In this document: positions 10,962 to 52,974 of the stretch, piece after piece
How the letters are laid out: every line of letters begins with the position of its first letter
How positions within the stretch are numbered: the first letter of the stretch is position 1
Notes under the pieces: generated by a model
Told to the model about the DNA's origin: nothing
Databases searched by the model: none
What the model saw: only the letters and a program-made list of their open reading frames with translations
Origin: Frankiales bacterium
GTDB taxonomy: Bacteria; Actinomycetota; Actinomycetes; Mycobacteriales; SCTD01
DNA length: 56,067 nt
Reading direction: 5' to 3'
Assembly: GCA_025965935.1 (NCBI GenBank)
Contig: JAOPVZ010000308.1
Span: forward strand, 1-56,067
Position numbers and translations under genes: made by a program

Positions 10962-10999
10962 CGGGATTCCTTCCTCAACAACCGGGGTAGCGGCTGCCG

Positions 11000-17257: not shown

Positions 17258-17844
17258 AGGGCCACCGGATACGGATCAGCCACGCCCAGCGCCACATCGA
17301 CCGCTGCGCACACCAGGTGCACGGCGACCTGGTGGACCTCTTGCACGGTCGCGGTGGCAGGAGCGTCAACAGTCAGGCACTCGTCGGCCAGCTGCTGCAT
17401 CGGCGAGCCCTCTCGGCCTGTCATGGCCCAGACGATCAGGCCCCGGTCCTGGGCGGACCGCATCGCGGCGAGCACGTTGCCGCTGGACCCGCTCGTCGAG
17501 AGCCCGAGGAAGACATCACCCGGCCGCCCGTGCGCCTCGACCTGGCGCGCGTAGCCGGCCCCCCAGCCGTAGTCGTTGGCGATCGCGGTCAGCGAGGACG
17601 TCTCGGCGTGCAGTGCGATGGCGGACAGGGCCGGCCGGTCGTCGCGGTAGCGCCCGACGAGCTCGGCGGTGAGGTGCTGGGCCTGAGCCGCGGAGCCGCC
17701 GTTGCCGGCTGCGAGCAGCCGGCCGCTGCCGATGAGGACCCTGGCCAGGTGCGTCCCCCAGCGATCCAGGAGGTCCGTGTCGAGCCCGGGCAGCGCGCGG
17801 GCGAGAGCCAGCACGTGCTGCCGGCCGGAGAGCAGCTGGGTCAC
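17254..17844 (-). CDS. gmhA: Phosphoheptose isomerase (SIS domain)
   Basis: The GTG at 17844 overlaps the upstream stop (GTGA). GNGGSAAQAQHLTAEL is a SIS/GmhA signature. The ORF-track N-terminal extension was rejected. Confidence 0.8.
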   Translation of the reverse strand: MTQLLSGRQHVLALARALPGLDTDLLDRWGTHLARVLIGSGRLLAAGNGGSAAQAQHLTAELVGRYRDDRPALSAIALHAETSSLTAIANDYGWGAGYARQVEAHGRPGDVFLGLSTSGSSGNVLAAMRSAQDRGLIVWAMTGREGSPMQQLADECLTVDAPATATVQEVHQVAVHLVCAAVDVALGVADPYPVAL

Positions 17845-19058: not shown

Positions 19059-20077
19059 GCGCTCAGCTCCAGCTCCAGCGCGGCCAGCGCCGCGATGACG
19101 TCGTCGTGCGCAAGGTCCTCCAGGCACGGGTGGCCGGGCACCGGGCAGGCTCGGGCCCGGGTACCGCGACAGGCGGCCCACTGGTCGCCGAGCACGACGC
19201 ACGGCACGCCCCATGGCTTCCACCTCTCGACAGGCACCACCGGCGAGAACAGGGAGACCACCGGCGCGCCGACGGCCGCCGCCAGGTGCGCTGGTCCGGT
19301 GTTGCCGACGACGACCGCGGTGGCCCGTCGCAGGACGTCGGCCAGCTCCGCGAGGCTCGTCCTACCCCCGAGGTCGGTGGCCTGGTCCCCGCTGACCTCC
19401 TGGGTGAGCTGCATCTCGTGGGGTCCACCGGTCACGACCACCCGCCGACCGAGCCCGGTCAGCCGGCAAACGAGCTCGCGCAGCCACGCTGAGGAGGTTG
19501 CACGGCTAGGTACCGAGGCGCCGGGATGCACCACCACGTAAGGCGATGAGCCCGTCAGGTGGCTGGCGCTGGGAAGCGGTCGCCGGACGGCGAGCCGGTT
19601 GTCGAACGGGTCGCCGGCCGAGGGGTAGCCGGCCGCCTCGACGAGGGACAGCATCCGCTGGACCTCGTGCAGGCCGCGCTCCGGCGGCCGGTGCCGCAGA
19701 TCGAGCAGCGAGCCCGGGTAGTCGTGGCTGATGGCGCCGACCCACGGCACCCCCGCCAACCTGAGCAGCAAGGCCGTGGGCAACGGGCTCTGCGAGGCAG
19801 AGGTCAGCACGAGCGCCGCCTCAGGTCGGGTTTCCTGGAGGCGAGCAACCGTCTCGCCGACGTCCGCGGGGTCCACCGGCTGCGGCTCGGGGTCGACCCA
19901 GGGACACCGCCAGACGATCACCTCGTCCACCCCCGGCAGCAGCCGCGCAGCGGCTTTGCCGCGCGGTCCGCACAGCAGCAGCAGCCTGTCGCAGCCGCGG
20001 CGCACCGCACGCAGCGCAGGTCCGGACAGCAGGACGTCACCGTCACTGTCGAGCCGCGCCACCAGCACGGTGCTCAT
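19055..20077 (-). CDS. Glycosyltransferase family 9 (heptosyltransferase-like)
   Basis: The ATG at 20077 overlaps the gmhB stop (ATGA). MSTVLVARLDSDGDVLLSGPALRAVRR is GT9-like. Confidence 0.75.
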   Translation of the reverse strand: MSTVLVARLDSDGDVLLSGPALRAVRRGCDRLLLLCGPRGKAAARLLPGVDEVIVWRCPWVDPEPQPVDPADVGETVARLQETRPEAALVLTSASQSPLPTALLLRLAGVPWVGAISHDYPGSLLDLRHRPPERGLHEVQRMLSLVEAAGYPSAGDPFDNRLAVRRPLPSASHLTGSSPYVVVHPGASVPSRATSSAWLRELVCRLTGLGRRVVVTGGPHEMQLTQEVSGDQATDLGGRTSLAELADVLRRATAVVVGNTGPAHLAAAVGAPVVSLFSPVVPVERWKPWGVPCVVLGDQWAACRGTRARACPVPGHPCLEDLAHDDVIAALAALELELSA

Positions 20078-20613
20078 GGGGCACCAAGGAGGATGTCGAC
20101 CGCCTCGTCGAACCTGGTGGCCACCGCGGGAGCAGTGCTGATCTCCTCGACCCGGGTGGCCTCGGTCGGGACCAGGACCGAACGGGCGCCCACGGCAGCT
20201 GCGGCCTCCACGTCCGCACCGATGTCGCCGATGACCGCGCACCGCTCAACGGCGACGCCCAGCAGCTCCGCGGCTCTGCGGAGCAGCCCGGACGCCGGCT
20301 TGCGGCAGCCGCAGCCGTCGTCCCGACCGTGCGGGCAGATGACGAACGGTCCAAGCGGACCGAGCAGCTGGTCGAGGCGCCGGTTCACGGCGTCGACCTG
20401 CTTGCCGGTCAGCAAGCCGCGCGCGATGCCGCTCTGGTTCGACACCACCGCCGTCGGCACTCCTGCCGCCCGCAGCCGGGCAAGTCCCTCGGGCACGCCG
20501 GGCAGCACGGCGACCTTGTCCGGATCGCCGTTGTACGGCACATCAGCGACGAGCGTGCCGTCCCGATCGAGCAGGACGGCCGCAGGGGGCTGCACAAGCG
20601 GCATGGGCGGCAC
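20074..20613 (-). CDS. gmhB: D,D-heptose 1,7-bisphosphate phosphatase (HAD-IIIA)
   Basis: DRDGTL motif I, SNQSG, and the CGCRKP zinc-loop motif typical of GmhB. Confidence 0.8.
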   Translation of the reverse strand: MPPMPLVQPPAAVLLDRDGTLVADVPYNGDPDKVAVLPGVPEGLARLRAAGVPTAVVSNQSGIARGLLTGKQVDAVNRRLDQLLGPLGPFVICPHGRDDGCGCRKPASGLLRRAAELLGVAVERCAVIGDIGADVEAAAAVGARSVLVPTEATRVEEISTAPAVATRFDEAVDILLGAP

Positions 20614-20644
20614 GTGTCCCGCCTGGCCTGATCAAAACAAAGCT

Positions 20645-20654
20645 CTTCCGGAAG
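20645..20654. promoter_or_regulatory. Perfect 10-bp palindrome CTTCCGGAAG in a divergent promoter region
   Basis: Read directly from the sequence. It sits in the AT-richer gap between gmhB (minus) and the receiver-like paralogue 2 (plus). Confidence 0.3.
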
Positions 20655-20871
20655 TTCTCCTTTACCTGCAGGCAAACCGGAGACGCGCTGGTGCCGACGG
20701 ATCACCGAACGTGGTATCACGCCAGAAGCGGGTACCAGGATGGGGCAGCTCGGAGAGAGCCGTGGCCGCGACCCGAACGGCGCCGGCCGTGACAGAGGCA
20801 GGATCGCCGCAACCGACCGGACTTGCCGTCGCGCGGGAACCGCATTTTCCCGCCCGTCACCAGGAGCCCCT

Positions 20872-21525
20872 GTGAGGCACCCGACGAGCACCACCGACCT
20901 TGCCATCAGCACCCATGACCTGCCGTTGGGCAGCCGGCGACGCGGCCTCGACCTCGTCCAGCGCCAGCTCGTCGCTGTCGAGGCGTTCACACGGGATCGG
21001 GTGAAGGCGCAACGGGCGCTCGAGGTCACGGCGCGCACTCGCGAGACCAGGATGGACGTCGTTCGCCGCCTCGATGTGCTGCGGCGCGAGCAGGAGATGC
21101 TCGTGGCCCGAGCCCACCAGCAGCTCGGCGAGACGGGCGACCTGCTCAGGGCGCCATCGGGGCGCCGGGCCGTCATCGCCCATCGGAACGCGTGGTTCGC
21201 CAGCAAGCTCGCCGAGCTGCTCGCCCAGGCCGACGTTCAGCTGCTCGAGCGCGTGGACAACGGAGCCGACGCGGTCGGTCTCGTGGTCGCCGAGCAGCCT
21301 GACCTGCTCTTCGTGGAGGACAGCCTGCTCATGGTGACCGGTGACGAGGTCATCCAGGAAGCACGGCGCTTCTGCCCGAGCACCCGAATCGGCGCGCGGG
21401 TCGAGTACGACGAGCGGGTCGGTGTCCTCTTGGACGCCGGCGCTGACATGGTCGCCACCCGCCAGGTTCCTCCACTGCGGGTCGCGCAGCAGCTACTCGC
21501 GCTCGTCGGGACCCCCGCAGGTTGA
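20872..21525 (+). CDS. Atypical receiver (REC-like) domain protein with N-terminal coiled coil, paralogue 2
   Basis: CAGGAG lies 5 nt upstream of the GTG at 20872. Shared blocks with 8957-9601 include HRNAW/HRNEW, NGADAVG/DGADGLG, EQPDLLFVED/EQPDLLLIED and LDAGADMV/LEAGAQAV. Confidence 0.6.
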   Translation: MRHPTSTTDLAISTHDLPLGSRRRGLDLVQRQLVAVEAFTRDRVKAQRALEVTARTRETRMDVVRRLDVLRREQEMLVARAHQQLGETGDLLRAPSGRRAVIAHRNAWFASKLAELLAQADVQLLERVDNGADAVGLVVAEQPDLLFVEDSLLMVTGDEVIQEARRFCPSTRIGARVEYDERVGVLLDAGADMVATRQVPPLRVAQQLLALVGTPAG

Positions 21526-33270: not shown

Positions 33271-35052
33271 TCACCCGGCGTCGAGCGCGTCGTCCGCAAC
33301 GGTCAGTGTCGTCACCGGCGTCGGGCGCCGGTGGGCGGTCTGGCCGGAGACGGACAGCGCCCCCGGCAGCTGCTTCAAGGGTACGGCGGGGGAGTACAGG
33401 AATCCCTGGGCCTCATGGCAATGCATGGCTCTCAGCAGCGCCGCTTGTTGCTGTGTCTCGACGCCCTCAGCGACCGCTGTCGCCCCTACGGCACGTGCGA
33501 GTCCGACGACGCTGCTGCAGATCGCCTCGTCGTCGCGGGTGAGGCCCAGCCCGGCGACGAAGGCGCGATCGATCTTCAGGACGCTGATGGGATAGCGGCG
33601 CAGGTAGAGAAGGGAGCTGTACCCGGTGCCGAAGTCGTCGATGCAGAGTCGGACTCCGAGCGCGGACAGCTCCTCCAGCACGAGTGCGGCTGTCTCCTCG
33701 TCAGCGATCAGGGAGGACTCGGTGATCTCCATGACGAGGCGATGGGGATCGAGGCGGCTGCTGCTGAGCGCTGAGCGCACGTGCTCGACCAGGTCTGGTC
33801 CGGTGAGCTGCCACGCCGAGACGTTGACCGCGACATCCAGGCCCGCGGCGGCCCCGGTGAAGGCGGCCGCGTCGGCGCAGGCCTGCTGGAGCACCCATCG
33901 ACCCAGCGGGCGGATCAGGCCGCCCCGCTCCGCGGCGGCGATGAACTCTGTCGGGGCGACCAGACCTTGCTGGGGGTGCTGCCAGCGCGCCAGGGCCTCG
34001 ACGGCGACCGGACGGTTCCGAGTCAGGTCGACGACGGGCTGGTAGTGCAGGACGAGGTCGCCCTGCAGCATGGCGACCCGCAGGTCCGCCTCCACACCGA
34101 TGTGCTCGCGGGGCACCTGCGCCAGCGAGCTGCTGAACATGCGGACCTGTGCTCGGCCCTTCCGCTTGGCGTCGTACATCGCGGCGTCCGCGGCGATGAT
34201 CAGGTCTTCGGGGGTCTGGTTGGGCTGCCCGACGACGACCCCCGTGCTGGCGGAAAGGGTCACCTCTTGGCCACTCACGTCGAAGGGCGCCGCGAAGGCG
34301 TCCATCAGCCTGCCTGCGAGCAGGTCGGCCTCCTCGCGGTTCCCCAGGTCGCGCCACACGACGAGGAACTCGTCCCCTGCGTAGCGGGCGAGGGTGTCAC
34401 CCGCGCGCACGGCCCAGGCCAGTCGTCTGGCCACCTTGACGAGTAACGCGTCCCCGGCTGAGTGACCGAGGCTGTCGTTGACCCGTTTGAAGTGGTCGAG
34501 GTCGACGAATCCGACGCCGACCAAGGCCCCCCGCCGGTCACTGTCGACCAGGGCCTGGGCGAGCCGGTCGTCCAGGAGAGTCCTGTTGGGAAGGCCGGTG
34601 AGCGCATCGTGCAGTGCTTCGTGCGCCAGAGCCTGCTGCACCTCGTGCAACGCGGTCACGTCGACGTGGTTGAAGACGGCGCCATGCTCCCCCAGCAGGT
34701 GCACGGGCCTGATGCGCACGCTGAACCAGCGACGTTCCCTGGGGCTGTGGCACGGGTACTCGTGCTCGAACCTGTCCAGGTCGTGGCTGAGGACGCCGCG
34801 CAGCCCGGCGGCGACCGTGGCTGCGTCCCTGGCGTCCGCGGAGCTCGCGACCTCGTCGCCTGGAGGGACGAGGCGGTCGCAGACCTGCAGGTAGTTGCTG
34901 CCGTCGCAGACCTCATCGGGGTTGGCGTCGTTCTCGGAGGCGAAGCTCCGCCAGGCGTCGTTGACCGCGAGGATCTCGCCGTTCCGGTCGACCGCGCAGG
35001 TTGAGGCCTCGATGGCATTCAGCATCGCCTGCGCAAGCTGCGCAGGCCTCAT
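33271..35052 (-). CDS. PAS-GGDEF-EAL c-di-GMP turnover protein
   Basis: PAS region (AVDRNGEILAVNDAW), I-site RAGD followed by AGDEF, and EAL motifs (EALARW, DDFGTGYSS, KIDRAFV). The ATG at 35052 overlaps the upstream stop. Confidence 0.85.
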   Translation of the reverse strand: MRPAQLAQAMLNAIEASTCAVDRNGEILAVNDAWRSFASENDANPDEVCDGSNYLQVCDRLVPPGDEVASSADARDAATVAAGLRGVLSHDLDRFEHEYPCHSPRERRWFSVRIRPVHLLGEHGAVFNHVDVTALHEVQQALAHEALHDALTGLPNRTLLDDRLAQALVDSDRRGALVGVGFVDLDHFKRVNDSLGHSAGDALLVKVARRLAWAVRAGDTLARYAGDEFLVVWRDLGNREEADLLAGRLMDAFAAPFDVSGQEVTLSASTGVVVGQPNQTPEDLIIAADAAMYDAKRKGRAQVRMFSSSLAQVPREHIGVEADLRVAMLQGDLVLHYQPVVDLTRNRPVAVEALARWQHPQQGLVAPTEFIAAAERGGLIRPLGRWVLQQACADAAAFTGAAAGLDVAVNVSAWQLTGPDLVEHVRSALSSSRLDPHRLVMEITESSLIADEETAALVLEELSALGVRLCIDDFGTGYSSLLYLRRYPISVLKIDRAFVAGLGLTRDDEAICSSVVGLARAVGATAVAEGVETQQQAALLRAMHCHEAQGFLYSPAVPLKQLPGALSVSGQTAHRRPTPVTTLTVADDALDAG

Positions 35053-35330
35053 GTCGGCGGTGCGTCGTCGTCGTCGTAGGGGACCGGGTGGTTGCGGCCG
35101 AGCTCGGAGAAGCGCTCGTTCAAGGCGTGTACGACGTGCTCCGCGTCGTCGGCCCCCGCGGTGAGTGCTCCGAGGCACATGGCCTCCAGCTCCAGAGCCG
35201 GCATCATGCCGCCGAGCGCGAAGTAGCGGAGCCACAGCTCGTCCTGCGACAGCCCCGCATCTCGTCTGGCCAGGTCGAGGGAGTCCACTCTCCGGTCAGG
35301 CACCGTGTGCTCCGACGCCGCTCTGGTCAT
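35049..35330 (-). CDS. Small hypothetical protein coupled to the GGDEF-EAL gene
   Basis: About 93 aa (or 79 aa if it starts at the GTG at 35288). It contains LSQDELWLRYFALGGMMPALELEAMCLG. ATGA overlap with the downstream gene. Confidence 0.45.
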   Translation of the reverse strand: MTRAASEHTVPDRRVDSLDLARRDAGLSQDELWLRYFALGGMMPALELEAMCLGALTAGADDAEHVVHALNERFSELGRNHPVPYDDDDAPPT

Positions 35331-36420
35331 CGCCAAACGGACCCCCGTGGGAGCGCTCGACGAGGCGTTCGCAGAGGTCCCGCAGTGGCTGGGAGGTCCG
35401 ACGGCTCTCGCGGCGCAGGGCCGCACGGGCTGTCGGCGCGCTCATGGAGTAGCGCTCCATCATGACACCCTGCGCCAGCGCGATGACCTCCCGCGAGAGC
35501 AGTGCCTGTCGTACCTGAGCGTCGAGTCCCTCTGGGGAGGCGGTCGCCTGCGCAGTGGACAGGACGGTGGCCGCCTCTGAGGCGAACTGATCGGCCCAGT
35601 CCGTCTCGGTGGCGGAAAAGGCGCTGACACTCCGGGAGTAGAGGTTCAGAGCACCCAGCGGCCCCACTCTCACGTTCAACGGCGTGGACAGAATGCTGCG
35701 AATGCCTCTGGCGCGCGCGCGAGGGACGAAGACCGGCCACCGAGCCTCGTCGTCGAGCGACGTCGCGAGGTACCGCACCCCGGTGCGTGCGGCGTCCAGG
35801 CACGGACCCTCGCCCGTCTCGTACTGGTCGTGATCCATCTCCAGGACCGTGTCATTGCTGGCCGCGACGGTCTGGAAGGTGCCGTTGGCCGGCAGCGTGA
35901 TGCTCGCGCCGTCGGCTCCGTGGACGACCGCCTGGGTCATGGTGGCGACCAGCTGAAGGGTTGCGGTCAACACGGCCTGGGCGTGTGCGGCCTCCCTCGA
36001 TTTGTGCAACCCGCGCAGCAACGCCTCGCTCGACGGGGGACGCTCGACACGCAGCAGACTGACGAGGTCGCTCAGCTGGAAGAGCCGGAACAGGTTGGCG
36101 TCGGCCCCCCTCACCGAGAGCTGCGTGCCCGTCCGCTGCAAGCGGTTGGCAGCGACGACCAGCAAGCCAAGTCCGTAGGCGTCGCAGAACGTCACGCCCG
36201 TGACGTCGACGACGACCTGGGAAGCCCCGAGACGGGCGACCTCGTCCAGCAGCAGCTGGAACGGCTCGTGGACCGCGACGTCGATCTCTCCTGCCAGCCG
36301 GAGGACTGCGACGTTGGCGTTCGGTGTCGTGCCTGAGCGGCCGCTGGCGGCGGCGGCGTCGGGAAACTCGAGGAATTCGAGGTCCACGAACCCCGACAAC
36401 TGCTCCGGGCCGGTCGTCAT
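35296..36420 (-). CDS. STAS-GAF-ANTAR fusion regulator
   Basis: N-terminal STAS (VVVDVTGVTFCDAYGLGLL), central GAF (YETGEGPCLDA), and C-terminal ANTAR (LLSREVIALAQGVMMERYSMS). Confidence 0.8.
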   Translation of the reverse strand: MTTGPEQLSGFVDLEFLEFPDAAAASGRSGTTPNANVAVLRLAGEIDVAVHEPFQLLLDEVARLGASQVVVDVTGVTFCDAYGLGLLVVAANRLQRTGTQLSVRGADANLFRLFQLSDLVSLLRVERPPSSEALLRGLHKSREAAHAQAVLTATLQLVATMTQAVVHGADGASITLPANGTFQTVAASNDTVLEMDHDQYETGEGPCLDAARTGVRYLATSLDDEARWPVFVPRARARGIRSILSTPLNVRVGPLGALNLYSRSVSAFSATETDWADQFASEAATVLSTAQATASPEGLDAQVRQALLSREVIALAQGVMMERYSMSAPTARAALRRESRRTSQPLRDLCERLVERSHGGPFGDDQSGVGAHGA

Positions 36421-36470
36421 GAGAGCGGCTGTCGGGTCGGGTGGGGGGTCTTGCCGGTTGACGGTCGTAA

Positions 36471-36513
36471 TGAGGACACTTCAGGCCTGACGTTGTTTGC
36501 GGCCTTATCCTCA
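36471..36513. promoter_or_regulatory. Nested inverted repeat in the divergent ANTAR-gene intergenic region
   Basis: TGAGGA (36471-76) pairs with TCCTCA (36508-13), and AGGCC (36483-87) pairs with GGCCT (36501-05). The surrounding stretch is AT-richer. Confidence 0.3.
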
Positions 36514-36570
36514 CAGGTCGAAGACGACGTCATCGTACGCCTCGATGACCCCGACGGAAGTGATTGCTTG

Positions 36571-37338
36571 ATGACGGGACCCACCCCGGCAGGTGACGGG
36601 GCCGTCTCTGGCTACGGCATCGCCGACGCGGGGATGGCAATGAGCCTGGTGGAGATCGCGCGCGTCCTGCTGGCGCCTGGCAGCGTCGCGCAGATCCTGG
36701 AGCGAATCGTCGTCCTCTCGATGGCCGCGATCGATGGCTGTGACGCCGCTGGGTTGTGCCTCCACGCAGGCCCTTCGACCGAACTGGGGCTCGTGGGCGG
36801 CGACGTGCTGACCGCGCTGGACGCGGCGCAGCACGAGGTCGGCGAGGGGCCCTGCGTCGACGTGCTGGCAGGCGCCGACAGCGCGTATGTCGCCGAGCTG
36901 ATGGACAGCAGCCGCTGGCCAGAGTTCGCGCCCCGTGCGACTGCGGCCGGGATGCGCTCCGCCCTGGCTTACCGGCTCGCGAACGGGTCGGTCACCCTCG
37001 GTGGGCTGCAGATGTACGCGCACCTGCCGGCGGCCTTCAGCGCCACTGATCGCGCGCAGGGCCTGCTGTTCGCCGCGCACGCCGGGATGGCTCTGGCCAA
37101 CGCCCAAGCGCAGGCCGAAGCGGATGACCGGCGGACCAACCTGCATGCGGCGATGTTGTCGCGTGAGGTCATTGGGCAGGCCCAGGGCATCCTGATGGAA
37201 CGAGAGCGGATCACTGCAGAGCAGGCCTTCCACCTGCTCAGGAAGGCATCGCAGGGTCTCAACCGCAAGCTCAGGGACGTCGCCCAGGAGCTCGTAGACA
37301 CCGGCACGGTCCCGGGAGAGCGCGATGAACAGCGGTGA
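36571..37338 (+). CDS. GAF-ANTAR regulator
   Basis: GAF (HEVGEGPCVDV) and ANTAR (MLSREVIGQAQGILMERERITAEQAF). GC-rich third codon positions begin near the ATG at 36571. The ATG at 36634 is an alternative start. Confidence 0.75.
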   Translation: MTGPTPAGDGAVSGYGIADAGMAMSLVEIARVLLAPGSVAQILERIVVLSMAAIDGCDAAGLCLHAGPSTELGLVGGDVLTALDAAQHEVGEGPCVDVLAGADSAYVAELMDSSRWPEFAPRATAAGMRSALAYRLANGSVTLGGLQMYAHLPAAFSATDRAQGLLFAAHAGMALANAQAQAEADDRRTNLHAAMLSREVIGQAQGILMERERITAEQAFHLLRKASQGLNRKLRDVAQELVDTGTVPGERDEQR

Positions 37339-40518: not shown

Positions 40519-42495
40519 CTACCAGTCGGTACGTGCGATGGCCGACGGAACCTCCTGCGGGGGCAACGGCCGTGCGAACAGGTAACCCTGTCCCTGGTTG
40601 CAGCCGATCTGTTGCAGGCGGAGGAGTTGCTCGGTCGTCTCGATCCCTTCGGCGACGGAGCGCAGGCCGAGGTTGGCGGCTAGGTCCACCACGGCAGCGA
40701 CGATGCCTTCGTCCTCCTTGTCGGTGAGAAGGCGTTGCACGAAGGACCGGTCAATCTTGACGAACGAGAGCGGCAGCCTGCGAAGGTGCGTCAGGGATGC
40801 GTATCCGGTTCCGAAGTCGTCCAGGCCGATTTCGACGCCCAGATCCCTGATCTGACCCAGCTGGTTCAGGATGTCGGGGCGAAGGTCGAAGACGGCGGTC
40901 TCGGTGAGTTCGAGACTCAAGCAGGTCGCATCCAGGCCCGATTCCTCGAGGCTGCTCTGCACCAACATCGTGAGGTCTCCAGGCCCGAGCTGCCGCACGG
41001 AGACGTTGACGGCGATCGTCAAGCGTTCCTCAACTCGTGCCCTCTGCCATTCGGCAGTCGCCTCACATGCGAGGCGCAGGACCTGCGCTCCCAGCGGGTT
41101 GATGAGCCCGCTTTCCTCTGCCACGGCGATGAAGGACGGCGGGAGCAGCATGGAGCCGTCGTGCTGGGAGATGCGGGCAAGTGCTTCGAGGCCCGAGACG
41201 ACTCCGGTGGCGAGGTCCACGATCGGTTGGTATCGGACGACGACGCGGTGGTCGTCGATGGCGGCTTGCAGCATCCGCTGCGCGGCGCTCCGTTGTTCGA
41301 CGCGACGGCCCAACGCCGCGTCGAAGGTCTCAACCCGCCCGCCACCCAACGACTTGGCGTGGTACATGGCCGTGTCGGCTTCCTTGATCAGGATCTCAGC
41401 CGTCCCTCGTCCCTCCGTTGAGATGGCGATTCCGACGCTTCCGGAAAGAGGCGTTGCGGGGTCGAGTTCGTCCCCCATGTCGCTCAGTCCGGCGACGAGG
41501 CGCTTACCGAGGCCGACGACGTCGAAGTTGTTGTCGACATCGGGGGCCAGGACGACGAACTCGTCGCCGCCGATGCGAGCGATGGTGTCCATCGGTCGGA
41601 GACTTGCTGCGAGCCTGTCGGCGGCGATTCGCAACGCCGCATCTCCGGCGGCGTGGCCGTAGGAGTCATTGATGTTCTTGAAGCTGTCGAGGTCGACGAA
41701 CAAGACGACGGTGCGTCGATTGGTGCGCTGAGCATGCGCGAGGGCCTGGTCGATCCGGTCCACCACGAGCGCTCGGTTGGGCAGACCAGTCAGGGCGTCG
41801 TGCGTGGCTTGCATCGTGAGGGCAGCTTGCGCGTCCTGCAGGTCCGTCATCCGCTCGGCCTGATCCATGCTGAGCTGTGCGATCACGCGGTCCTGAGTTC
41901 TCTGGGCGCGGAGGTCGGTGAACGTGAGACACGTGAGCCCCTCGCCATCTGCATCCAGTGGTGAGCTCCCGACAAGAACAGGGACGACCAATCCGGCAGA
42001 GTCGACCAAGTCGAGCTCGACAGTTGCGCCGAGTCCGCTCGGACCTCGCACCTCGTGCAGATCGATGGGGTCGGCCCCTCCGCCGAAGGTCGCAAGTGGC
42101 AACCCCACCAGCGACTCCCGTGGGCAGGACAGGAGTTCGGCCAGTCGTCTGTTGGCATACAGGATGATGCCGCTCAACGAGACCGTTGCGGCTCCTTCAC
42201 GCATGTTCTCCACGAACACCCGGTACGGTCGATCGGCAGTCGACAGCGTGAAGACACGCTGGCTGTCCGCTCCGTCGGAGACGACAAAGGCATCCACCTC
42301 GCCCGCGCCGATGGCTCGCAGGGTCTCCTCCGCTTCCGCAAGGCAGATCAGAGCGTCGGCAAGCATCCTCTGCGCTTCGTCCAAGGCGTCTGCCATCGCA
42401 TCGACATCCGCCAGTCCGGTGCCCATGCCCTGGCGTAGGCCACCACCAGCCGGCTGGGACTGCGAACGCCGGGGAAAGGGCAGACGTGGGGTCAT
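40519..42495 (-). CDS. PAS-GGDEF-EAL c-di-GMP turnover protein (last gene of the kai operon)
   Basis: PAS region, I-site RPMD followed by a canonical GGDEF, and an intact-looking EAL (EALARI, ELTE, DDFGTGYAS, KIDRSFV, EGIET). The ATG at 42495 overlaps the kaiB stop (ATGA). Confidence 0.85.
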   Translation of the reverse strand: MTPRLPFPRRSQSQPAGGGLRQGMGTGLADVDAMADALDEAQRMLADALICLAEAEETLRAIGAGEVDAFVVSDGADSQRVFTLSTADRPYRVFVENMREGAATVSLSGIILYANRRLAELLSCPRESLVGLPLATFGGGADPIDLHEVRGPSGLGATVELDLVDSAGLVVPVLVGSSPLDADGEGLTCLTFTDLRAQRTQDRVIAQLSMDQAERMTDLQDAQAALTMQATHDALTGLPNRALVVDRIDQALAHAQRTNRRTVVLFVDLDSFKNINDSYGHAAGDAALRIAADRLAASLRPMDTIARIGGDEFVVLAPDVDNNFDVVGLGKRLVAGLSDMGDELDPATPLSGSVGIAISTEGRGTAEILIKEADTAMYHAKSLGGGRVETFDAALGRRVEQRSAAQRMLQAAIDDHRVVVRYQPIVDLATGVVSGLEALARISQHDGSMLLPPSFIAVAEESGLINPLGAQVLRLACEATAEWQRARVEERLTIAVNVSVRQLGPGDLTMLVQSSLEESGLDATCLSLELTETAVFDLRPDILNQLGQIRDLGVEIGLDDFGTGYASLTHLRRLPLSFVKIDRSFVQRLLTDKEDEGIVAAVVDLAANLGLRSVAEGIETTEQLLRLQQIGCNQGQGYLFARPLPPQEVPSAIARTDW

Positions 42496-42833
42496 GACGC
42501 TGCCAATGGGGTGTGTGCTGCGCGGCTCGCGTCGGGAAGCTCCAGCGCGAGAAGCACCTTGTGGACGTCCGAGAGGTCGCCGACATGCCTACGGACGGGG
42601 AGCGGCAAGGCCCTGACCAAGGTCGGCGACGCAAGCACCCCGCTGTCGACGGCCGCACCCGGGTCCTCGTTGAGATCGATGACCACGAGATGACTGTTCT
42701 GCACGTGACGCTCACACAGCTGCCGAGCATTCGTGATGGCGCGAGCCGAAAGGTTCGAGGCCCCGCTGACGAAGAGGGTCAGCTCTACGCCGGGGACGAC
42801 CGAGCCCGGGCGGTCAACCCGTGAGCTCGTCAC
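42492..42833 (-). CDS. kaiB: KaiB-family protein (divergent second copy)
   Basis: [15 protein letters not shown]...[21 protein letters not shown] matches the KaiB thioredoxin-like pattern. GTGA overlap with the first kaiB. Confidence 0.75.
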
Positions 42834-43147
42834 GCTGGTCGCAAGTGAAGGCCGGCAATGACCCGCTCGGTGTTGGACAGATCACCGATGATCTTGTGGC
42901 GCGGTTCGGGGAGCCGGCGCACCAGCGTGGGGATGGCGAGGATGTCGTCGCCCCGGGCGAGAGCGGGATACTCGACCAGGTCAATGATCTCGATCTCGTA
43001 GTGTCCGAGTAGGTATTGGTCGCACAGGCGCTTCAGATTGGCGTGTGCATGTAGAGACTTCGGCGACTGGCCTGCCACGTACAGGCGGAGGTACCAATGC
43101 TCGGCCCGCGAAGGATTGACGGGCTCTAGCCTGTCGATCGTGGTCAC
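42830..43147 (-). CDS. kaiB: KaiB circadian-clock-type protein
   Basis: [12 protein letters not shown]...[30 protein letters not shown] closely follows the KaiB consensus. GTGA overlap with the kaiC stop. Confidence 0.85.
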
Positions 43148-44928
43148 GTCAGCCCGCTGAGACTGTCCAGTGGTTCAGGTCCTTCTGCGAGCTCCGCGAT
43201 GTCCGCACGACGTAGCCGGCCCTGTTCTGCGCGCTGCCCGGCCTGGTCCTCGGTGCCGGTCGAACCATGGCTCAGCAGTCGGCCAACCATGTCGGCCTCG
43301 GTCTCGAACTCCCGCCACAGGGTGGCGGTCTGCGACTCGACGGATTCGCGACGCCGCTCCAGGTTGACCCGACGCTGCTCAAGGTCGTCAAGGCGGGCAG
43401 TGCCGTCGGACCGTTCCTTGGCCTCCTGAGCTTGACGGGCAGAGCCGGTGAGCACGCCATGCGGCCCGACGTAGACATCAACCAGCTCAATGCCTTGGCT
43501 GGTGATGTGGAACTCGCGGATCTGGTTTGAATGGGCCATCCCACGTGACTTGCGGACGTAGAGCACGCGGTTGTGCTCGCCATTGCCCTCCATGGTCTTC
43601 ACCAGGATCCAGGTGTCGACGAGCGAGGCGATGTGCTGGTCGGATCCGGTCGACTGCGCGTCCGCGTTCAGGCTGGTGAACAGCGATGTCACGCCCCTTG
43701 ACTTCAGGAAATCGACCTGCCTGGTCAGAAGCGCTGACACGTCCAACCCGGTGCCGACGCGCAGGAGGTCTGAGACAGGGTCTTTGACGACGACGGCTGG
43801 GTCGAACTCGCGGACGTACTTCTGCATGGCGAACAGGTGCGCCTCCAGCCCCAAGAGGCTGGGGCGGAAGCAGTGGAACTGCAGCAGTCCTGCATCGATC
43901 CAGCGCTGCAGGTGGATGCCGACCGAGGACATGTTTCGGACGATCTCCGCCTGGGACTCCTCGAACGCGAAGTACAAAGCCCGTGCTCCACGGCCGCAGC
44001 TCGCGTCGCAGAACTGCGCCGCCAACGTGGACTTGCCAGTACCGGCGGTGCCACTGATGAGCACGGCGCTGCCTTGGAAGAAGCCTCCGTCGCCGAACAT
44101 GGAGTCCAGACGGGGTACGCCGGTGGAGACCCGTCGCGACGACACGCCGTGCTGCAGCCCGAGCGACGTGATCGGGAGGACGGAGACGCCGGACTCGCCG
44201 ATGAGGAACGGGTACTCGTTCGTCCCGTGCAGGGAACCGCGGTACTTCAGGATCCGCAGTCGCCGGGTCGACGTCTGCTCCGTGACCCGGTGGTCGAGGA
44301 CGATCACGCAGTCCGAGACGTACTCCTCGATGCCATGACGCGTGAGCGTGCCGTCACCCCGCTCGCCGGTGATCACCGCCGTGATGCCGCGGTCCTTGAG
44401 CCATCTGAAAAGGCGCTGCAGTTCCGCGCGGAGGACGGCGGCGTTCGAGAACGCGCCGAACAGGTTCTCGATGGTGTCGATGACGATGCGCTTCGCGCCG
44501 ATCGAGTCGATGGCCTCGCCCAGGCGGAGGAACAACCCGTCGAGGTCCCAGTCCCCGGCATCCTCCATCTCGATCGCGGAGACCTGCACTTGGTCCATCA
44601 CGAGCTTGCCTTCGGCCTCCAGACGCCGCAGGTCGAAGCCCATCGATGCGACGTTGGCGACGAGGTCCTCAACGGTCTCTTCGAACGCCACGAACACCCC
44701 CGGCTCGTCGAACTCGGTGATCCCGCGGACAAGGAACTCCATGGCCAGCAGCGTCTTGCCGCAGCCGGCTGGGCCGCAGACAAGGGTGGGCCGTCCCCAC
44801 GGCAGCCCGCCACCGGTGACCTCGTCGAGCCCGCTGATGCCCGTCGGCGCCTTGGGCAACGTGGCTAGGTGGGGCTCTTGGCTGGCTCCGGTGGCATGCC
44901 CTGGAGTTGGTCGCTTCGAGGGAGACAT
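43144..44928 (-). CDS. kaiC: KaiC double-domain ATPase with a long C-terminal coiled-coil-like extension
   Basis: Two RecA-like halves, each with a Walker A ([16 protein letters not shown]) and a catalytic EE pair (AFEET, AFEES). The protein is 594 aa. GAGAGGA lies upstream of the ATG. Confidence 0.9.
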
Positions 44929-45022
44929 GACGCGATTCCTCTCATAGAGGAGGCGTCGAGCCAGTTACGAGGGCGACGACCATTGCGTCGTATTTGGCCC
45001 TGCCAGGCGTCTCATTGCGTGC

Positions 45023-45043
45023 GCAACGGCAACCTTCCGTTGC
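45023..45043. promoter_or_regulatory. 7-bp stem hairpin in the kaiC upstream region
   Basis: GCAACGG, loop CAACCTT, then CCGTTGC, read directly about 100 nt upstream of the kaiC start. The 8-mer CATTGCGT occurs at 44981 and again at 45013. Confidence 0.3.
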
Positions 45044-45857
45044 CCGCCGACTGTATCAAGGATCGAAATTCCGCGCAGTTGATCGTGAACCGACCGTCGC
45101 AGGACGAATGGCTCGCCCGCGCGGCCTTGAATGGCTAGCCAGCGAAAAGCCCTGACACGACGCGCTCTGACGCGACGAGGGAGTGCTGACAGCGGAGACC
45201 TGCGCGCCCCAGGGGAACGGATGGCGTCGCCATGGGTGGTCACATTTGCCGTGTTGAATACGGCTGTTCGCCTGGGCAGAGTTGTCGGAACTCGTGCAGG
45301 TCCTGCTCGGTCGTCTTGCTCCAGTGCGGGTTGCAGCGCGAAGTGTCGCGCGGCTGCATCAACTCCATACTCTGCGACTCGGCGTGCCTGGTGTACGGAC
45401 TGCACACCTTCTTCGTCGGCCCCGCAGCCGTCGCCCTGGCCGAGCGCTACGACCGCGACTCGCGGGACCAGGGGCACGCTGCTCGGCATGTTCGTCGTGA
45501 TGCCTGTGCACAGCGCTCATCGCCTGCGTCTCACTCTGTCCGACGGGCTGCAGATCAAGCCAGGAGGACGGTCGTCGTCCTGACGAACTGCTTCGCTCCG
45601 AATCGTCGCGGGACGTCCGGCCTGCTCGCTGCGGTGGTGCGACATCCAGGAGCTGCGCACCAGAGGCGAACCGGATCCACTACCGCGCCACCCGGGTTAC
45701 CTGACCGCGAGCTCTCGGCGACACAGTCCTCGACGTCGCCAACACCGCCGCTTGTCCGCCTTGACGGCTGATGCCCGACTTCTTCATGCCGCCTGATCGC
45801 GCACGCAGGCACGAACAGGGCCAGGATCGGAGATCGTTCCGAACTGAGGTGAGCACG

Positions 45858-49917: not shown

Positions 49918-50202
49918 GAAGTGCCGTTTCGTTGAGATCGGACGGGACGGCGACAGCAGACTCTCGGCGGATCGCTGCGAGACAACGCCCGGGTGAACGG
50001 TCCCGGCACACGCACTGAACTTCTCCGGACGTTCAGGTTCTGTACATGTATCCGCTAGTCCGACCGGACCGCTAGGGCACTCGACCGGCCGGGGGCACCG
50101 TGAAGAAGCGGCCTGCTTCTCGGCACTCGGCTCACCGGTCTGACAAACCAGGTCTCTCCAATGTGTGGGTAGGGCACCCCTTGGGATGCCTTGGGGTGCA
50201 GG

Positions 50203-52974
50203 ATGGGTCGCTCGAGAGGGGGCAACGACCGCGTGTCTGAGTTGGGCAGCAACGTGGTGCCGCTGTTGCCGGATGACCCCTTGACACGTGAGGCGCTGTC
50301 TGACGCCTTGCTGGCAGCTAGTTCGCTGCTGGACCCGTCGGCGGTGGCGCAGTTGACGGTGCGGCATCTCCGTGACCAGTGCGGCGCCGATGGTGCGGCC
50401 CTGTACTGGTGGGACGACGCCGAACAGGTCTTGCTGCCGCTGGCGGTTCTGGATCCGCATGCGCGTTCGCTCCACCAGGTGTTCCATCCACGGCAGGGCG
50501 TCACAGGTGCGGCGTTCGCAACGGGGATGCCCGTGATCGCGAACGGCTACCCGTCGGGGGTCGAGTCACCACCCGCGTGGAAGGTCGCTGAGGGCGTCTG
50601 CGCGGTAGCGGCGGTACCGCTCGTGGTCCATGGCCAGGTGTGTGGGGTGCTGACCCTCACCGAGCATCACGAGGCGGAGCTGACGGATGGCGACGTCGAG
50701 CTGATGCAACGTGTCGGCGAGCAGGTCGCGCCGACTTTGCACAGCATGCGCGCTCTCGCGCACGCTCAGTTCCGACTGTCCGAGGCCCGCGAACTGTCCT
50801 CGCTGATCCGAGACTCCGCCACCAGCACGGACGTGACTCCGCTGCTCGATCGCATTTGTGAGCTGTCCTGCCGGATGCTCGGCACCGAGTTTGCCGGCGT
50901 GGTGCTGCCGACGGCGGGAGGGGACGTGTGGGCGGGGATCTACGGCAGCATCTCGGACCGTCCTGGGTGGCGTCGCGAAGCGCGGGACTGGCCGCTGCTG
51001 CCCAGTCTCATGGATGGCGAGCCTCTTCTCCTGAGCGACCTCGGCGACAACCCCGACTTGCCGCTTGACGCGATGCCTGTCGTCAGAGCGGAGAAGCTGC
51101 GCACTGTCTTGGCCGTTCCGCTCATGCCGGCGGATGGCGACCTGTTGGGGGTGCTCGTTCTCGGGTGGCGGCTGAGCTTGACGCCGTCACTACAGCTGGT
51201 TGGCCTGGGCCGCACCTTGGGGGCGGCGGCCACGTCGCTGTTGACCCAGGCCCGGACGATCGCCGCGCTGCGTGATCGGGAGACGCTGTGGCGGCTGACG
51301 TTGGACAACGCGCCGGTGGGCATCTGCCTCGTGCATCTGAACGGGACGTTCAGGCTCGTCAATGATGCGATGAGCAGGATCCTTGGCTACGCCGCGGATG
51401 ATCTGCTCGCACGAGAGTTCACCTCCGTCCTCGAGCCGACGGACGTACGACTTGGCATGGCAGCGTTTGACCGGCTGCTCGCCGATGGAGGCAGCTCCCA
51501 GCCGATCCAGGTCCGTTGCGTGCACGCCGACGGGCATGTGGTCTGGTCACTGCTGTCGGTGCAGCTGGTGCGGGACGTCGACGACGTCGCTGAGTACTTC
51601 TGCGTCCTGCTGGAAGACATCACCTCGCAGCACGAGCAAACCGCTCAGCTCACCCACCTGGCGACACACGACCAGGTCACCGGATTGGCCAACCGGCGGC
51701 TGTTCTACGACTTGCTGAACGACCGCGTCAGCCGGTCGGGGGACACCCTCGTCGCGTTGCTGGAGGTGCCGCAGCTCCACGGTCTGGAGGACCGGCTCGG
51801 GCATCTCAGCGCGGACGAGGTCGTCCGGGCGCTGTCGGACCGACTCGCCGAGTGCATCGACGTACTCGGTGCCTCCGACTCCGTCGACGCCGCCGCCCGC
51901 CGCAACGCTGAAGCCGACGGTCAGGAGTGCCTCGCCAGGTTCGCCTCCGACGAGTTCGCGGTCATGCTGACCCCTCGCGCAGGGCAGCCGGCCGAGGAGA
52001 TGGTTCTCGACCGGCTCGCCAGCGCGTTCAACGAACCCTTCACCGTCGCCGGACGTAGCCACAGGCTGTCTGCGCACATCGGTGTTGCGGTCAGCCCCGC
52101 CCACGGCAGCACGGCACAGGATCTCCTGCGCGCTGCCGACATCGCGCTGGCCGGCGCCCGCCACGACTCAGCCGCTGTCCGGCAGTACAGCACCGCCATG
52201 GGCGATGCCCTGCTGCACAGTCAACGGCTGATCCTCGACCTGCGCGCCGCTGTTGCGGGTGGGGGGCTGTCGCTGGCGTATCAGCCGATCATCGACGGCG
52301 ACGGGAGACTCGTCTCAGCCGAAGCGCTTGCCCGCTGGACTCACCCCGAGTTCGGTGCCGTCGGCCCCGACGCCTTCATTCCCCTCGCCGAGGAGTCGGG
52401 CGTCATGCCCGCACTCACGGCCTGGGTGCTCGACACGGCGCTCGCATCGTGCGCCCGATGGCAGCGCGACAAGCCCGGCGTCGCGGTCGCCGTCAACCTT
52501 GCGGCCACGGATCTGCAGGACCCAACAGCAGTCCAGGGAATCGCCGAGGCGCTGCGCAAGAACCAGCTGCCGCCGGAGCTCCTCGAGATCGAACTCACCG
52601 AGACAACGCTGATGACCGACCCGCTGACCGTGGCGACCAACCTCAATCACCTGGCAGCGCTCGGTGTCAAGCTCGCGATCGACGACTTCGGCACCGGCTA
52701 CAGCTCTTTCACGTACCTTCAACGCCTCCCGGCCACGACCCTCAAGATCGACCGGTCGTTCGTCACCACCATGCTCACCGACACCGGCAACGCCGCCATC
52801 GTCACCATGGTCCTTCAACTGGCCCGGATGCTCGGCCTGACCACAGTCGCCGAAGGCGTCGAGGACGCCGAGACCCGCGACCAGCTCAACGCCCTTCACT
52901 GCGACCGGCAACAGGGCTACGGCATAGCCCGACCCATGTCTGAGGACCAGTTCGCCACCTGGCGGGCTACCTGA
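50203..52974 (+). CDS. GAF-GAF-PAS-GGDEF(degenerate)-EAL protein
   Basis: N-terminal GAF-like regions, PAS (NAPVGICLVHLNGTFRLVND), ASDEF in place of GGDEF with no RxxD, and an intact-looking EAL (EALARW, ELTE, DDFGTGYSS, KIDRSFV). The start is uncertain (50191-50230). Confidence 0.8.
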   Translation: MGRSRGGNDRVSELGSNVVPLLPDDPLTREALSDALLAASSLLDPSAVAQLTVRHLRDQCGADGAALYWWDDAEQVLLPLAVLDPHARSLHQVFHPRQGVTGAAFATGMPVIANGYPSGVESPPAWKVAEGVCAVAAVPLVVHGQVCGVLTLTEHHEAELTDGDVELMQRVGEQVAPTLHSMRALAHAQFRLSEARELSSLIRDSATSTDVTPLLDRICELSCRMLGTEFAGVVLPTAGGDVWAGIYGSISDRPGWRREARDWPLLPSLMDGEPLLLSDLGDNPDLPLDAMPVVRAEKLRTVLAVPLMPADGDLLGVLVLGWRLSLTPSLQLVGLGRTLGAAATSLLTQARTIAALRDRETLWRLTLDNAPVGICLVHLNGTFRLVNDAMSRILGYAADDLLAREFTSVLEPTDVRLGMAAFDRLLADGGSSQPIQVRCVHADGHVVWSLLSVQLVRDVDDVAEYFCVLLEDITSQHEQTAQLTHLATHDQVTGLANRRLFYDLLNDRVSRSGDTLVALLEVPQLHGLEDRLGHLSADEVVRALSDRLAECIDVLGASDSVDAAARRNAEADGQECLARFASDEFAVMLTPRAGQPAEEMVLDRLASAFNEPFTVAGRSHRLSAHIGVAVSPAHGSTAQDLLRAADIALAGARHDSAAVRQYSTAMGDALLHSQRLILDLRAAVAGGGLSLAYQPIIDGDGRLVSAEALARWTHPEFGAVGPDAFIPLAEESGVMPALTAWVLDTALASCARWQRDKPGVAVAVNLAATDLQDPTAVQGIAEALRKNQLPPELLEIELTETTLMTDPLTVATNLNHLAALGVKLAIDDFGTGYSSFTYLQRLPATTLKIDRSFVTTMLTDTGNAAIVTMVLQLARMLGLTTVAEGVEDAETRDQLNALHCDRQQGYGIARPMSEDQFATWRAT

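Follow-up and report, generated by a model that had tools for sequence, protein, structure and literature searches.

The DNA analysed here, a complete 56,067-nucleotide metagenomic contig (JAOPVZ010000308.1) of a Frankiales bacterium and hereafter called the window, carries on its minus strand at 40519-44928 a cassette of four overlapping genes, namely kaiC, two kaiB genes (kaiB1 and kaiB2) and a gene for a PAS-GGDEF-EAL protein, which we call the partner. By analogy with characterised Kai systems, we are inclined, on balance, to regard this cassette as a self-contained kaiC2-kaiB-PAS-output signalling unit that would convert the state of the Kai proteins into a level of c-di-GMP (cyclic dimeric guanosine monophosphate). 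A preliminary description of the locus, made from the sequence letters, had already proposed that the Kai state is read out as c-di-GMP turnover. We keep this proposal as the most economical inference, now grounded in a KaiC of the Rhodobacter sphaeroides type, in a PAS domain that appears dedicated to Kai loci and in the conserved catalytic sites of the partner.

Gene organization of the cassette

The genes are kaiC (43144-44928, 594 aa), the canonical kaiB1 (42830-43147, 105 aa), the divergent paralogue kaiB2 (42492-42833, 113 aa), which is specific to the actinobacterial clade described below, and the partner gene (40519-42495, 658 aa), all on the minus strand. Coordinates and overlaps were read directly from the sequence and agree with the preliminary description: the start codons GTG, GTG and ATG of the three downstream genes share 4 nucleotides (nt) with the preceding TGA (GTGA, GTGA and ATGA), the junction sequences being CTGACGTGACC (kaiC/kaiB1), GCGTGACG (kaiB1/kaiB2) and GTCATGACC (kaiB2/partner). 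These tight junctions are not due to chance, because 4-nt overlaps are conserved in the related clade, where they occur at 34 of 46 junctions between kai genes and at 11 of 27 junctions between kaiB and the partner gene, with a gap of at most 30 nt at 9 more of the latter. In gene order, location on one strand and close spacing, the locus fits the kaiC-kaiB-PAS-output operon family. No kaiA or histidine kinase had been noticed in the window, and in a Pfam scan of its ~45 likely genes, which left a few open reading frames (ORFs) without any match, no KaiA, HisKA, HATPase_c or receiver domain was found. Scans of the window for sigma-70 promoters and intrinsic terminators were uninformative at such GC content.

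KaiC and its phosphosite

The product of kaiC matched PF06745 in two stretches (360 bits, Pfam) and NF006799 with 706 bits against a cut-off of 408 (NCBIfam). Both halves carry a Walker A motif (GPAGCGKT at 52-59 and GTAGTGKS at 293-300) and a catalytic Glu pair (FEE at 82-84 and 322-324, the pairs being EE 83-84 and 323-324), confirming that it is a full double-domain KaiC as first described. Its score with the cyanobacterial equivalog TIGR02655 was 356.6 bits, under the cut-off of 546, and the closest solved structure is R. sphaeroides KaiC (KaiC-RS, 8DBA), with a gapless alignment of 630 bits over residues 24-553. The protein is thus assigned to the KaiC2 / R. sphaeroides type, for which the absence of KaiA is expected and not anomalous.

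Residues 499-594 (43147-43434, minus strand) form a C-terminal extension homologous to the coiled-coil tail of KaiC-RS, into which the 8DBA alignment reaches as far as residue 553; a tail at least ~50 aa long past the A-loop is the mark of this KaiC type. In KaiC-RS this extension forms a coiled-coil bundle joining two hexamers into a dodecamer, and it frees autophosphorylation from the need for KaiA (PMC10076222); by this precedent the tail encoded in the window is predicted to form a coiled coil and dodecamers. A tail of ~90 aa is kept in most relatives. The loci L028, L029 and L030 (also L073 and L080) encode a KaiC without the extension and retain kaiB and the GGDEF-EAL partner, and may be viewed as natural 'delta-coil' variants.

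In an alignment with wild-type 8DBA (SS) and the phosphomimetic 8FWI (EE), the phosphosite codons fall at 43624-43629 (minus strand); they encode A434-S435 and correspond to S413/S414 of KaiC-RS and S431/T432 of Synechococcus elongatus KaiC. Among 80 related loci, the doublet is Ala, Thr or Val followed by Ser (AS, TS, VS) in every KaiC of the actinobacterial clade, and Ser-Ser in 47 of the 50 KaiCs of other phyla. The position of cyanobacterial T426 is mostly Ala across the clade. Judging from these alignments, the first KaiC phosphosite is lost in the whole actinobacterial clade. An association of Ala-Ser with the GGDEF-EAL output was considered and rejected: Ala-Ser is also present in two clade members whose partners are hybrid histidine kinases, and the proteobacterial KaiCs linked to GGDEF-EAL have Ser-Ser. 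The substitution therefore tracks the clade and not the output type.

Two KaiB paralogues

The assignment of two KaiB-family proteins was borne out by PF07689 scores of 83.4 bits (KaiB1) and 53.3 bits (KaiB2) against a cut-off of 27. Both fall under the cut-offs of the cyanobacterial equivalogs NF006798 and TIGR02654, and for both the best PDB match is R. sphaeroides KaiB (KaiB-RS, 8FWJ), with 93 bits for KaiB1 and 65 bits for KaiB2. As the structure of KaiB-RS shows the fold-switched, bound state, this similarity would lead one to expect a fold switch and binding to ADP-bound CI. KaiB1 clusters with the first-position KaiBs of all phyla in one clade of 71 sequences, and KaiB2 lies in a separate, divergent clade that holds the actinobacterial KaiBs of second position. 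A single ancient cross-phylum orthologue group of second KaiBs was not supported, as the actinobacterial and the other second-position KaiBs form separate clades. Because some members of the clade retain only a KaiB of the KaiB1 type and others only one of the KaiB2 type, the two proteins may be partly redundant.

The PAS-GGDEF-EAL partner

On the minus strand, the partner comprises an N-terminal helix with the Kai-associated PAS domain (residues 29-195, 41911-42411), a long signalling helix from PAS to GGDEF (residues 196-229, 41809-41910), a GGDEF domain (41341-41808; PF00990, 144 bits) and an EAL domain (40567-41277; PF00563, 224 bits). The Pfam score of the PAS domain was 20.6, under the cut-off of 22.6. 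The domain is nevertheless established, because 42 of the 43 homologous partners match PAS models and the AlphaFold model of the N-terminal region, built from 58 homologues with a mean predicted local distance difference test (pLDDT) score of 84.7, has only PAS and LOV domains as its best PDB matches (PAS domains of FixL, SO_1695, YtvA/LOV and DosP, all with probability 1.0). The order in the model is a long N-terminal helix, the PAS core and a 34-residue C-terminal helix, the last with pLDDT >95. Since the first ~28 residues are modelled at low confidence, the true start of the partner could be further downstream than annotated.

The preliminary description had reported a canonical GGDEF, an RxxD I-site and an intact-looking EAL, and the motifs are indeed present. 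The GGDEF motif (309-313) is preceded five residues upstream by the I-site RPMD (R300-D303), and the motif DLDSFKNIND supplies a metal-binding Asp. The complete catalytic and metal-binding set of the EAL domain is also found (EALxR, N, ELTE, DDFGTG, KID, EGIE and QG). GGDEF and I-site are conserved in 19-20 of 20 orthologues and the EAL motifs in 18-20 of 20, indicating that both c-di-GMP catalytic centres are intact and that the partner is apparently catalytically competent.

A PAS module linked to kai genes

The PAS domain has the signature ...LRAIxxGEVDAxVV...FTL..AD..YR..E.M.EGA...G.ILY.N, the conserved part covering residues ~55-115, and its most conserved residues are placed at the N-terminal cap and in the first strands rather than in an obvious cofactor pocket. 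Conserved positions include A61, I62, G65, D68, Y91, R92, E96, M98, G101 and N115. The linkage of this domain to kai genes was counted from surveys of loci and look-ups of genomic context, database matches to the PAS alone being mostly short fragments. When partner residues 1-215 were used as a tblastn query, the gene directly 3' of kaiB was matched in 69 of the 80 Kai loci, whose taxa include Proteobacteria, Bacteroidota, Acidobacteriota, Verrucomicrobiota and three methanogen or Methanoperedens metagenome-assembled genomes (MAGs). Elsewhere in the 80 loci (1.27 Mb) no match was obtained, except beside a second kaiB pair in L064. In the reverse sampling, all four of four distant PAS matches on long contigs were located directly downstream of kaiC/kaiB, one of them being itself followed by a sigma-54 activator, and in two database matches KaiB and PAS were within a single gene call. 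The two other GGDEF-EAL proteins of the window do not have the Kai-type PAS. These results argue that the N-terminal PAS of the partner is a Kai-dedicated subfamily, which in the examined DNA adjoins only kai genes.

Outside the actinobacterial clade, the output domains of the partners are HATPase_c in 30 of 43, GGDEF(-EAL) in 7 (in Proteobacteria and Eremiobacterota), CZB in 3 and HD in 1, in accordance with the earlier statement that PAS histidine kinases are the usual partners outside cyanobacteria. Because the PAS stays constant while the effector domains interchange, information would flow from Kai to PAS to effector. The pattern of histidine kinase, GGDEF-EAL and a sigma-54 activator is as would be expected for an input adaptor with swappable outputs. 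The sigma-54 case is L082 (3550-7981), in which kaiC-kaiB-kaiB is followed by a Kai-type PAS ORF overlapping the ORF of a sigma-54 activator (AAA+ plus HTH_8). The two ORFs are probably one frameshifted gene, which would be a third, transcriptional type of output. In L064, from a deltaproteobacterial MAG, a second kaiB-kaiB-PAS partner set is found at 12380-13535, ~2.7 kb downstream of the first, and no second kaiC was detected near it.

Distribution and possible transfer of the cassette

Kai loci were collected by a GTDB scan with one genome per species, and the best 80 of 187 KaiC relatives were kept as loci. The ~28 closest KaiCs (68-82% identity) all belong to Actinomycetota MAGs, from Acidimicrobiia, Thermoleophilia, Actinomycetes and Nitriliruptoria, and KaiC is conserved at 75-84% identity across classes. 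The full cassette, consisting of kaiC, one or two kaiB genes and a partner colinear throughout with that of the window, is present in ~20 of the 22 assessable closest GTDB representatives. The best 120 metagenomic KaiC clusters from a collection of 5.8 billion proteins all showed at least 76% identity, three of them 97-98%. In the contig collection, no exact match to the KaiC of the window was obtained. Host and output had both been called unusual in the preliminary description, but these representatives and clusters show the cassette to be the norm of its clade. In the survey of gene neighbourhoods, GGDEF-EAL was the majority form within the clade, apart from its 7 of 43 occurrences elsewhere, and the supposed rarity was mistaken.

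The assignment to a high-GC actinobacterium was correct, since the CtaD protein of the window shows 77-80% identity to proteins from Mycobacteriales/Frankiales MAGs. The uncultured host is probably non-phototrophic and from soil or peat.

The GC content at third codon positions (GC3) of kaiB1, kaiB2 and the partner gene is 0.77-0.79 (z -1.7 to -2.1), relative to a mean of 0.857 with a standard deviation of 0.040 for 35 other likely genes of the window. These three genes have the lowest GC3 in the window, and the GC content remains lowish up to the contig end. The claim of a lower third-position GC bias thus holds for kaiB1, kaiB2 and the partner gene but not for kaiC, whose GC3 of 0.84 is average, and the dip is real but modest. 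None of the genes flanking the cassette in the window recurs beside it in the other loci, so that the cassette is the only syntenic unit across loci; a relative with 87% KaiC identity has the same four-gene cassette in a different neighbourhood. The KaiC of the window is closer to those of Solirubrobacterales-type MAGs (82%) than to those of Frankiaceae/Mycobacteriales (75%). Low GC3, non-conserved flanks, a relative flanked by insertion sequences and this mild taxonomic mismatch are suggestive of horizontal acquisition. Against this, CtaD is also 77% identical to an Acidimicrobiales protein, across classes, and because of this the identity levels by themselves are not anomalous.

The relative flanked by insertion sequences is L085 (7001-15809 of a 5.26-Mb contig), where kaiC-kaiB (KaiC 79% identity, leader present) is followed by ISL3 and IS21/Mu-type transposase genes. 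Having neither kaiB2 nor the partner gene, it may represent either a decayed cassette or evidence of mobility. Three archaeal loci, L032, L057 and L063 (Methanoperedens, Methanoregulaceae and Methanospirillum MAGs), have a bacterial-type kaiC-kaiB(-kaiB)-PAS arrangement with 57-58% KaiC identity and the C-terminal tail, which points to transfer of the cassette between domains of life.

A conserved leader upstream of kaiC

Between kaiC and a divergent Zn-dehydrogenase gene lies a stretch of ~840 bp (44929-45770) with lower GC, no GC3 coding signal and no Pfam match, of which only the last ~110 nt are conserved elsewhere. A candidate extended -10 element, TGATACAGT, was read from the sequence at 45050-45058 (minus strand), and TGnTAnnnT is found at the equivalent position in the kaiC-linked leaders of related loci. 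A consensus scan for a full sigma-70 promoter upstream of kaiC gave no match, and TGATACAGT is considered a possible promoter element of the operon. It is followed by a 5' hairpin, GCAACGG...CCGUUGC.

The kaiC leader itself (44929-45021, minus strand) consists of box 1 (GAGACGCC), a hairpin in which the distal stem is variable, box 2 (GGCUCGACGCCUCC) and the Shine-Dalgarno (SD) sequence GAGAGGA. Its nucleotide sequence is conserved among 20 actinobacterial Kai loci with unrelated upstream genes (the window, L003, L005-L007, L009, L011-L018, L021, L022, L081 and L084-L086), box 2 being invariant. The covariance model R1 matched the window at 44909-45021 (61.7 bits, E 5e-10) and found exactly one copy per locus, always 5' of kaiC, with no copy elsewhere in the window and none in the non-actinobacterial Kai loci. 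The loci L019, L028 and L030 have a different kaiC leader.

In single-sequence folds, the hairpin is closed by pairing between box 1, at its 3' end, and box 2, at its 5' end, and box 2 pairs with the segment from SD to AUG. In 18 of 20 loci, the duplex of box 2 with the SD-AUG segment was stabler than its shuffled controls, with a mean z of -1.5 over the 20 loci and z -2.3 in the window. In a leader alignment guided by the model, compensatory changes were found in 11 of 16 pairs, with 39 double-sided cells versus 17.2 +/- 3.1 in shuffles, and 72.8% of cells pair versus 27-50% with the partners slid, figures that lean towards structure as this alignment was fitted to the model. The unfitted MAFFT alignment gave weaker support (80.5% paired versus 28-47% slid). 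Because the MAFFT alignments misplace the variable spacer, RNAalifold detected in them an invariant 3-bp GGC/GCC stem and no further consensus structure. As RNAalifold saw no wider consensus, the evidence for structure comes from the single-sequence folds, the structure given by hand and the model-fitted alignment.

Rfam gave no match at gathering score in the window, and no relevant one at E <=10 on the leader or at E <=0.1 in the 19 other copies; these scans exclude a c-di-GMP riboswitch or another Rfam family 5' of kaiC. Searches of the literature with the box motif strings found no relevant paper. The leader is not a Kai-specific element: a metagenome scan gave at least 120 exact two-box matches (L087 onwards), and in only 3 of ~110 assessable copies does the leader precede kaiC. 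The other genes 3' of it encode alpha/beta-hydrolases, MFS transporters, CsbD, STAS, F420H2-dependent reductase, Zn-ADH and small membrane proteins. Tandem partial duplications of box 2 or of the SD part are seen in the leaders of L120 and L130.

From these features the leader is a candidate cis-regulatory RNA. It could sequester the SD and be recognised by a ligand, a protein or a small RNA, and the kai operon could then belong to a stress-type regulon. Alternatively, the leader may act at the DNA level as an operator.

Other genes of the window

Two further GGDEF-EAL proteins are encoded less than 10 kb from the operon, at 33271-35295 (minus strand) and 50191-52974 (plus strand), the latter having the order GAF-PAS-GGDEF-EAL, and the region is rich in genes of c-di-GMP turnover. 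A STAS-GAF-ANTAR protein (35296-36480, minus strand) and a second ANTAR protein (36337-37338, plus strand) are divergent, with overlapping ORF 5' ends. RNA leaders are binding targets of ANTAR proteins. The ANTAR genes of the window are not conserved beside other Kai loci. The cluster at ~10991-21000 resembles a pathway for an ADP-heptose-type glycan, which would be unusual in an actinobacterium. It contains two genes of GT9 heptosyltransferase-like type, several GT2/GT4 genes, an HldE-like fusion of PfkB kinase and cytidylyltransferase, and genes for a HAD phosphatase and a carbamoyltransferase.

Discussion

The best-characterised relative of the cassette is the R. sphaeroides KaiBC system (KaiBC-RS; 8DBA, 8FWI, 8FWJ), an hourglass reset by the ATP:ADP ratio, with phosphosites S413/S414 (Pitsawong et al. 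2023, PMC10076222). KaiB-RS binds ADP-bound CI whatever the phosphorylation state and speeds ATP hydrolysis; the output is not addressed in that paper, where the term 'histidine kinase' has 0 occurrences. The window resembles this system in having no KaiA, in the gapless 630-bit KaiC match including the coil tail, in the Walker A and EE motifs of both domains and in KaiBs that are closest to KaiB-RS. It differs in the Ala-Ser doublet versus Ser-Ser, in two KaiB paralogues versus the single KaiB studied, in the continuation of the operon into a PAS-GGDEF-EAL gene and in a host that is probably a non-phototrophic actinobacterium. The cyanobacterial KaiABC system with its SasA/CikA-RpaA output shares homologous KaiC and KaiB, and KaiB is expected to be fold-switched on the CI ring in both. 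In contrast, the window has no KaiA, SasA, CikA or RpaA-like genes, and its KaiC is below the TIGR02655 cut-off and has a C-terminal extension and a single phosphosite.

By analogy with KaiBC-RS, KaiC would autophosphorylate at the single remaining site, S435, under high ATP. When the ATP:ADP ratio falls, KaiB would bind the ADP-bound, post-hydrolysis CI ring, and this binding would speed ATP hydrolysis and dephosphorylation. The module would be an hourglass or switch driven by the energy state, not a free-running clock. The Kai-dedicated PAS would dock on fold-switched KaiB or on the KaiB-KaiC complex, as KidA does with KaiB, and the long signalling helix would shift the balance between diguanylate cyclase and phosphodiesterase, so that the Kai state would be expressed as a c-di-GMP level and not as a phosphorelay. 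The operon is probably subject to post-transcriptional gating as well, through a structured leader in which the invariant box 2 can sequester the ribosome-binding site.

The docking step leans on KidA of S. elongatus. As Kim et al. (2022, PMC9478674) showed, KaiB in its fold-switched form binds to KidA through the N-terminal PAS domains of the latter. The authors proposed this to be general for kai homologues, remarked on PAS genes beside kaiBC homologues and proposed a relay through c-di-GMP. The two proteins are alike in being PAS-GGDEF-EAL proteins with apparently active motifs and linked to KaiB, and the idea of a c-di-GMP relay applies to both. The KidA gene, however, is away from kaiABC, beside a heme oxygenase gene, whereas the partner gene overlaps kaiB2 by 4 nt.

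Several points weigh against the proposed conversion of Kai state into c-di-GMP. We infer the co-transcription of the four genes only from their overlaps. To our knowledge, a day/night ATP cycle is not obvious in an actinobacterial heterotroph. Because the first phosphosite is Ala, the two-step phosphorylation of KaiC-RS and of cyanobacteria would be impossible here, and timing properties may be different or lacking. Four PAS domains are present in KidA, which acts in a self-sustained clock containing KaiA, whereas the partner has one PAS and the window no kaiA. The sole demonstrated effect of KidA is moreover the shortening of the S. elongatus period, for which GGDEF/EAL are dispensable (PMC9478674).

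One alternative is that the cassette keeps no time at all and is a stress or energy-state switch, like the kai operons of Legionella and Pseudomonas, that reports ATP:ADP or stress to c-di-GMP-controlled biofilm formation or development. We consider this rather unlikely, though it has several observations on its side: with the first phosphosite lost, there is no ordered two-site cycle, the kaiC leader is common to stress-type genes (CsbD, STAS, F420H2-dependent reductase and MFS transporters), and the actinobacterial host, probably from soil or peat, is presumably non-phototrophic. The Legionella kai operon is reportedly tied to the stress response, to go by the title of a 2014 paper by Loza-Correa as cited elsewhere. 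De Luca et al. (2011, PMC3164672) cite work suggesting that Kai homologues may play a rudimentary hourglass role in two heterotrophs, Pseudomonas putida and Legionella pneumophila. On the other hand, strong conservation (75-84% identity across classes) extends over the KaiC machinery as a whole, the coiled-coil tail and the KaiBs. KaiBC-RS is itself driven by the environment, so that a switch and an hourglass would be told apart by kinetics alone, on which the sequence is silent.

It is also conceivable, if doubtful, that the partner is a KidA-like input or tuning factor, its PAS stabilising fold-switched KaiB while the c-di-GMP domains answer another signal and are not controlled by Kai. This role has the only experimental precedent, as the PAS-ABC part of KidA shortens the period without a need for GGDEF/EAL, and ligand or cofactor binding is common in PAS domains, including the structural neighbours FixL, DosP and LOV. 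The DosP protein of Escherichia coli, found among both structural and profile neighbours, has the same PAS-helix-GGDEF-EAL layout, but the PAS subfamily of the window is defined by its linkage to kai and not by a cofactor, and no sign of a heme pocket was sought or seen in it. The placement of the conserved PAS residues in the N-terminal cap and first strands, and not in an obvious cofactor pocket, speaks against this role. The occurrence of the same Kai-type PAS with histidine kinase, GGDEF-EAL or sigma-54 activator indicates a constant sensor with a variable effector, classically a sign that information passes from the PAS to the enzymatic side, and the strict conservation of both catalytic sites likewise speaks against a tuning factor.

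That the genes are merely co-located and co-expressed, without physical contact between the partner and the Kai proteins, seems very improbable: GGDEF-EAL genes are very common in the region, with two more in the window, but those two proteins have no Kai-type PAS, the PAS subfamily was seen only beside kai genes in 1.27 Mb of loci and in 4/4 look-ups, and the start/stop overlaps are conserved.

As for precedents of a c-di-GMP output from Kai, GGDEF/EAL partners beside kaiBC appear in De Luca et al. (2011, PMC3164672) as a minority alternative. The kaiC-kaiB-(PAS histidine kinase) operons, the 'orange group' of that paper, have the same gene order, a Kai-type PAS (30-45% identity over residues ~52-200) and often a second kaiB; their output is HisKA-HATPase_c, whereas it is GGDEF-EAL in the window and in most of the actinobacterial clade. 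A 2026 study reports that altered c-di-GMP shifts the period and phase of S. elongatus without direct action on the Kai proteins. We found no description of Actinomycetota Kai systems in the literature. Concept and architecture are thus already in print; the actinobacterial clade, its single phosphosite, its clade-specific KaiB2 and the Kai-specific PAS signature are, as far as we have seen, undescribed.

A more far-reaching version would combine a single-phosphosite KaiBC hourglass, turning the energy state of the cell or the time elapsed directly into c-di-GMP through the PAS adaptor, with translation gated by the structured leader (GAGACGCC, hairpin, GGCUCGACGCCUCC, sequestered SD), the leader defining a post-transcriptional stress regulon of soil and peat Actinomycetota. 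We put this forward only as a tentative and, taken as a whole, unlikely scheme. If it were true, the leader would be a new class of riboswitch-like or protein-bound RNA, with a regulon of CsbD, STAS, F420H2-dependent reductase, MFS, alpha/beta-hydrolase and the kai operon. Should the leader be a true regulatory RNA, it may be a more original lead than the cassette.

The architecture itself is common in metagenomes and will not surprise specialists, and the main value of the locus is as an experimentally convenient entry to the output of KaiBC. Outside cyanobacteria such outputs are essentially unknown, the best-studied system, that of R. sphaeroides, having been characterised in vitro only. 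Whether a single site suffices for hourglass behaviour can be tested on the Ser-to-Ala change that nature already provides at the first site. Seen as a portable adaptor, the Kai-specific PAS predicts a docking surface common to histidine kinase, GGDEF-EAL and probably sigma-54 activator partners. Since the presumed output enzyme is encoded in the same unit of overlapping genes and c-di-GMP is easily measured, this clade could make the target of a primordial Kai timer directly testable.

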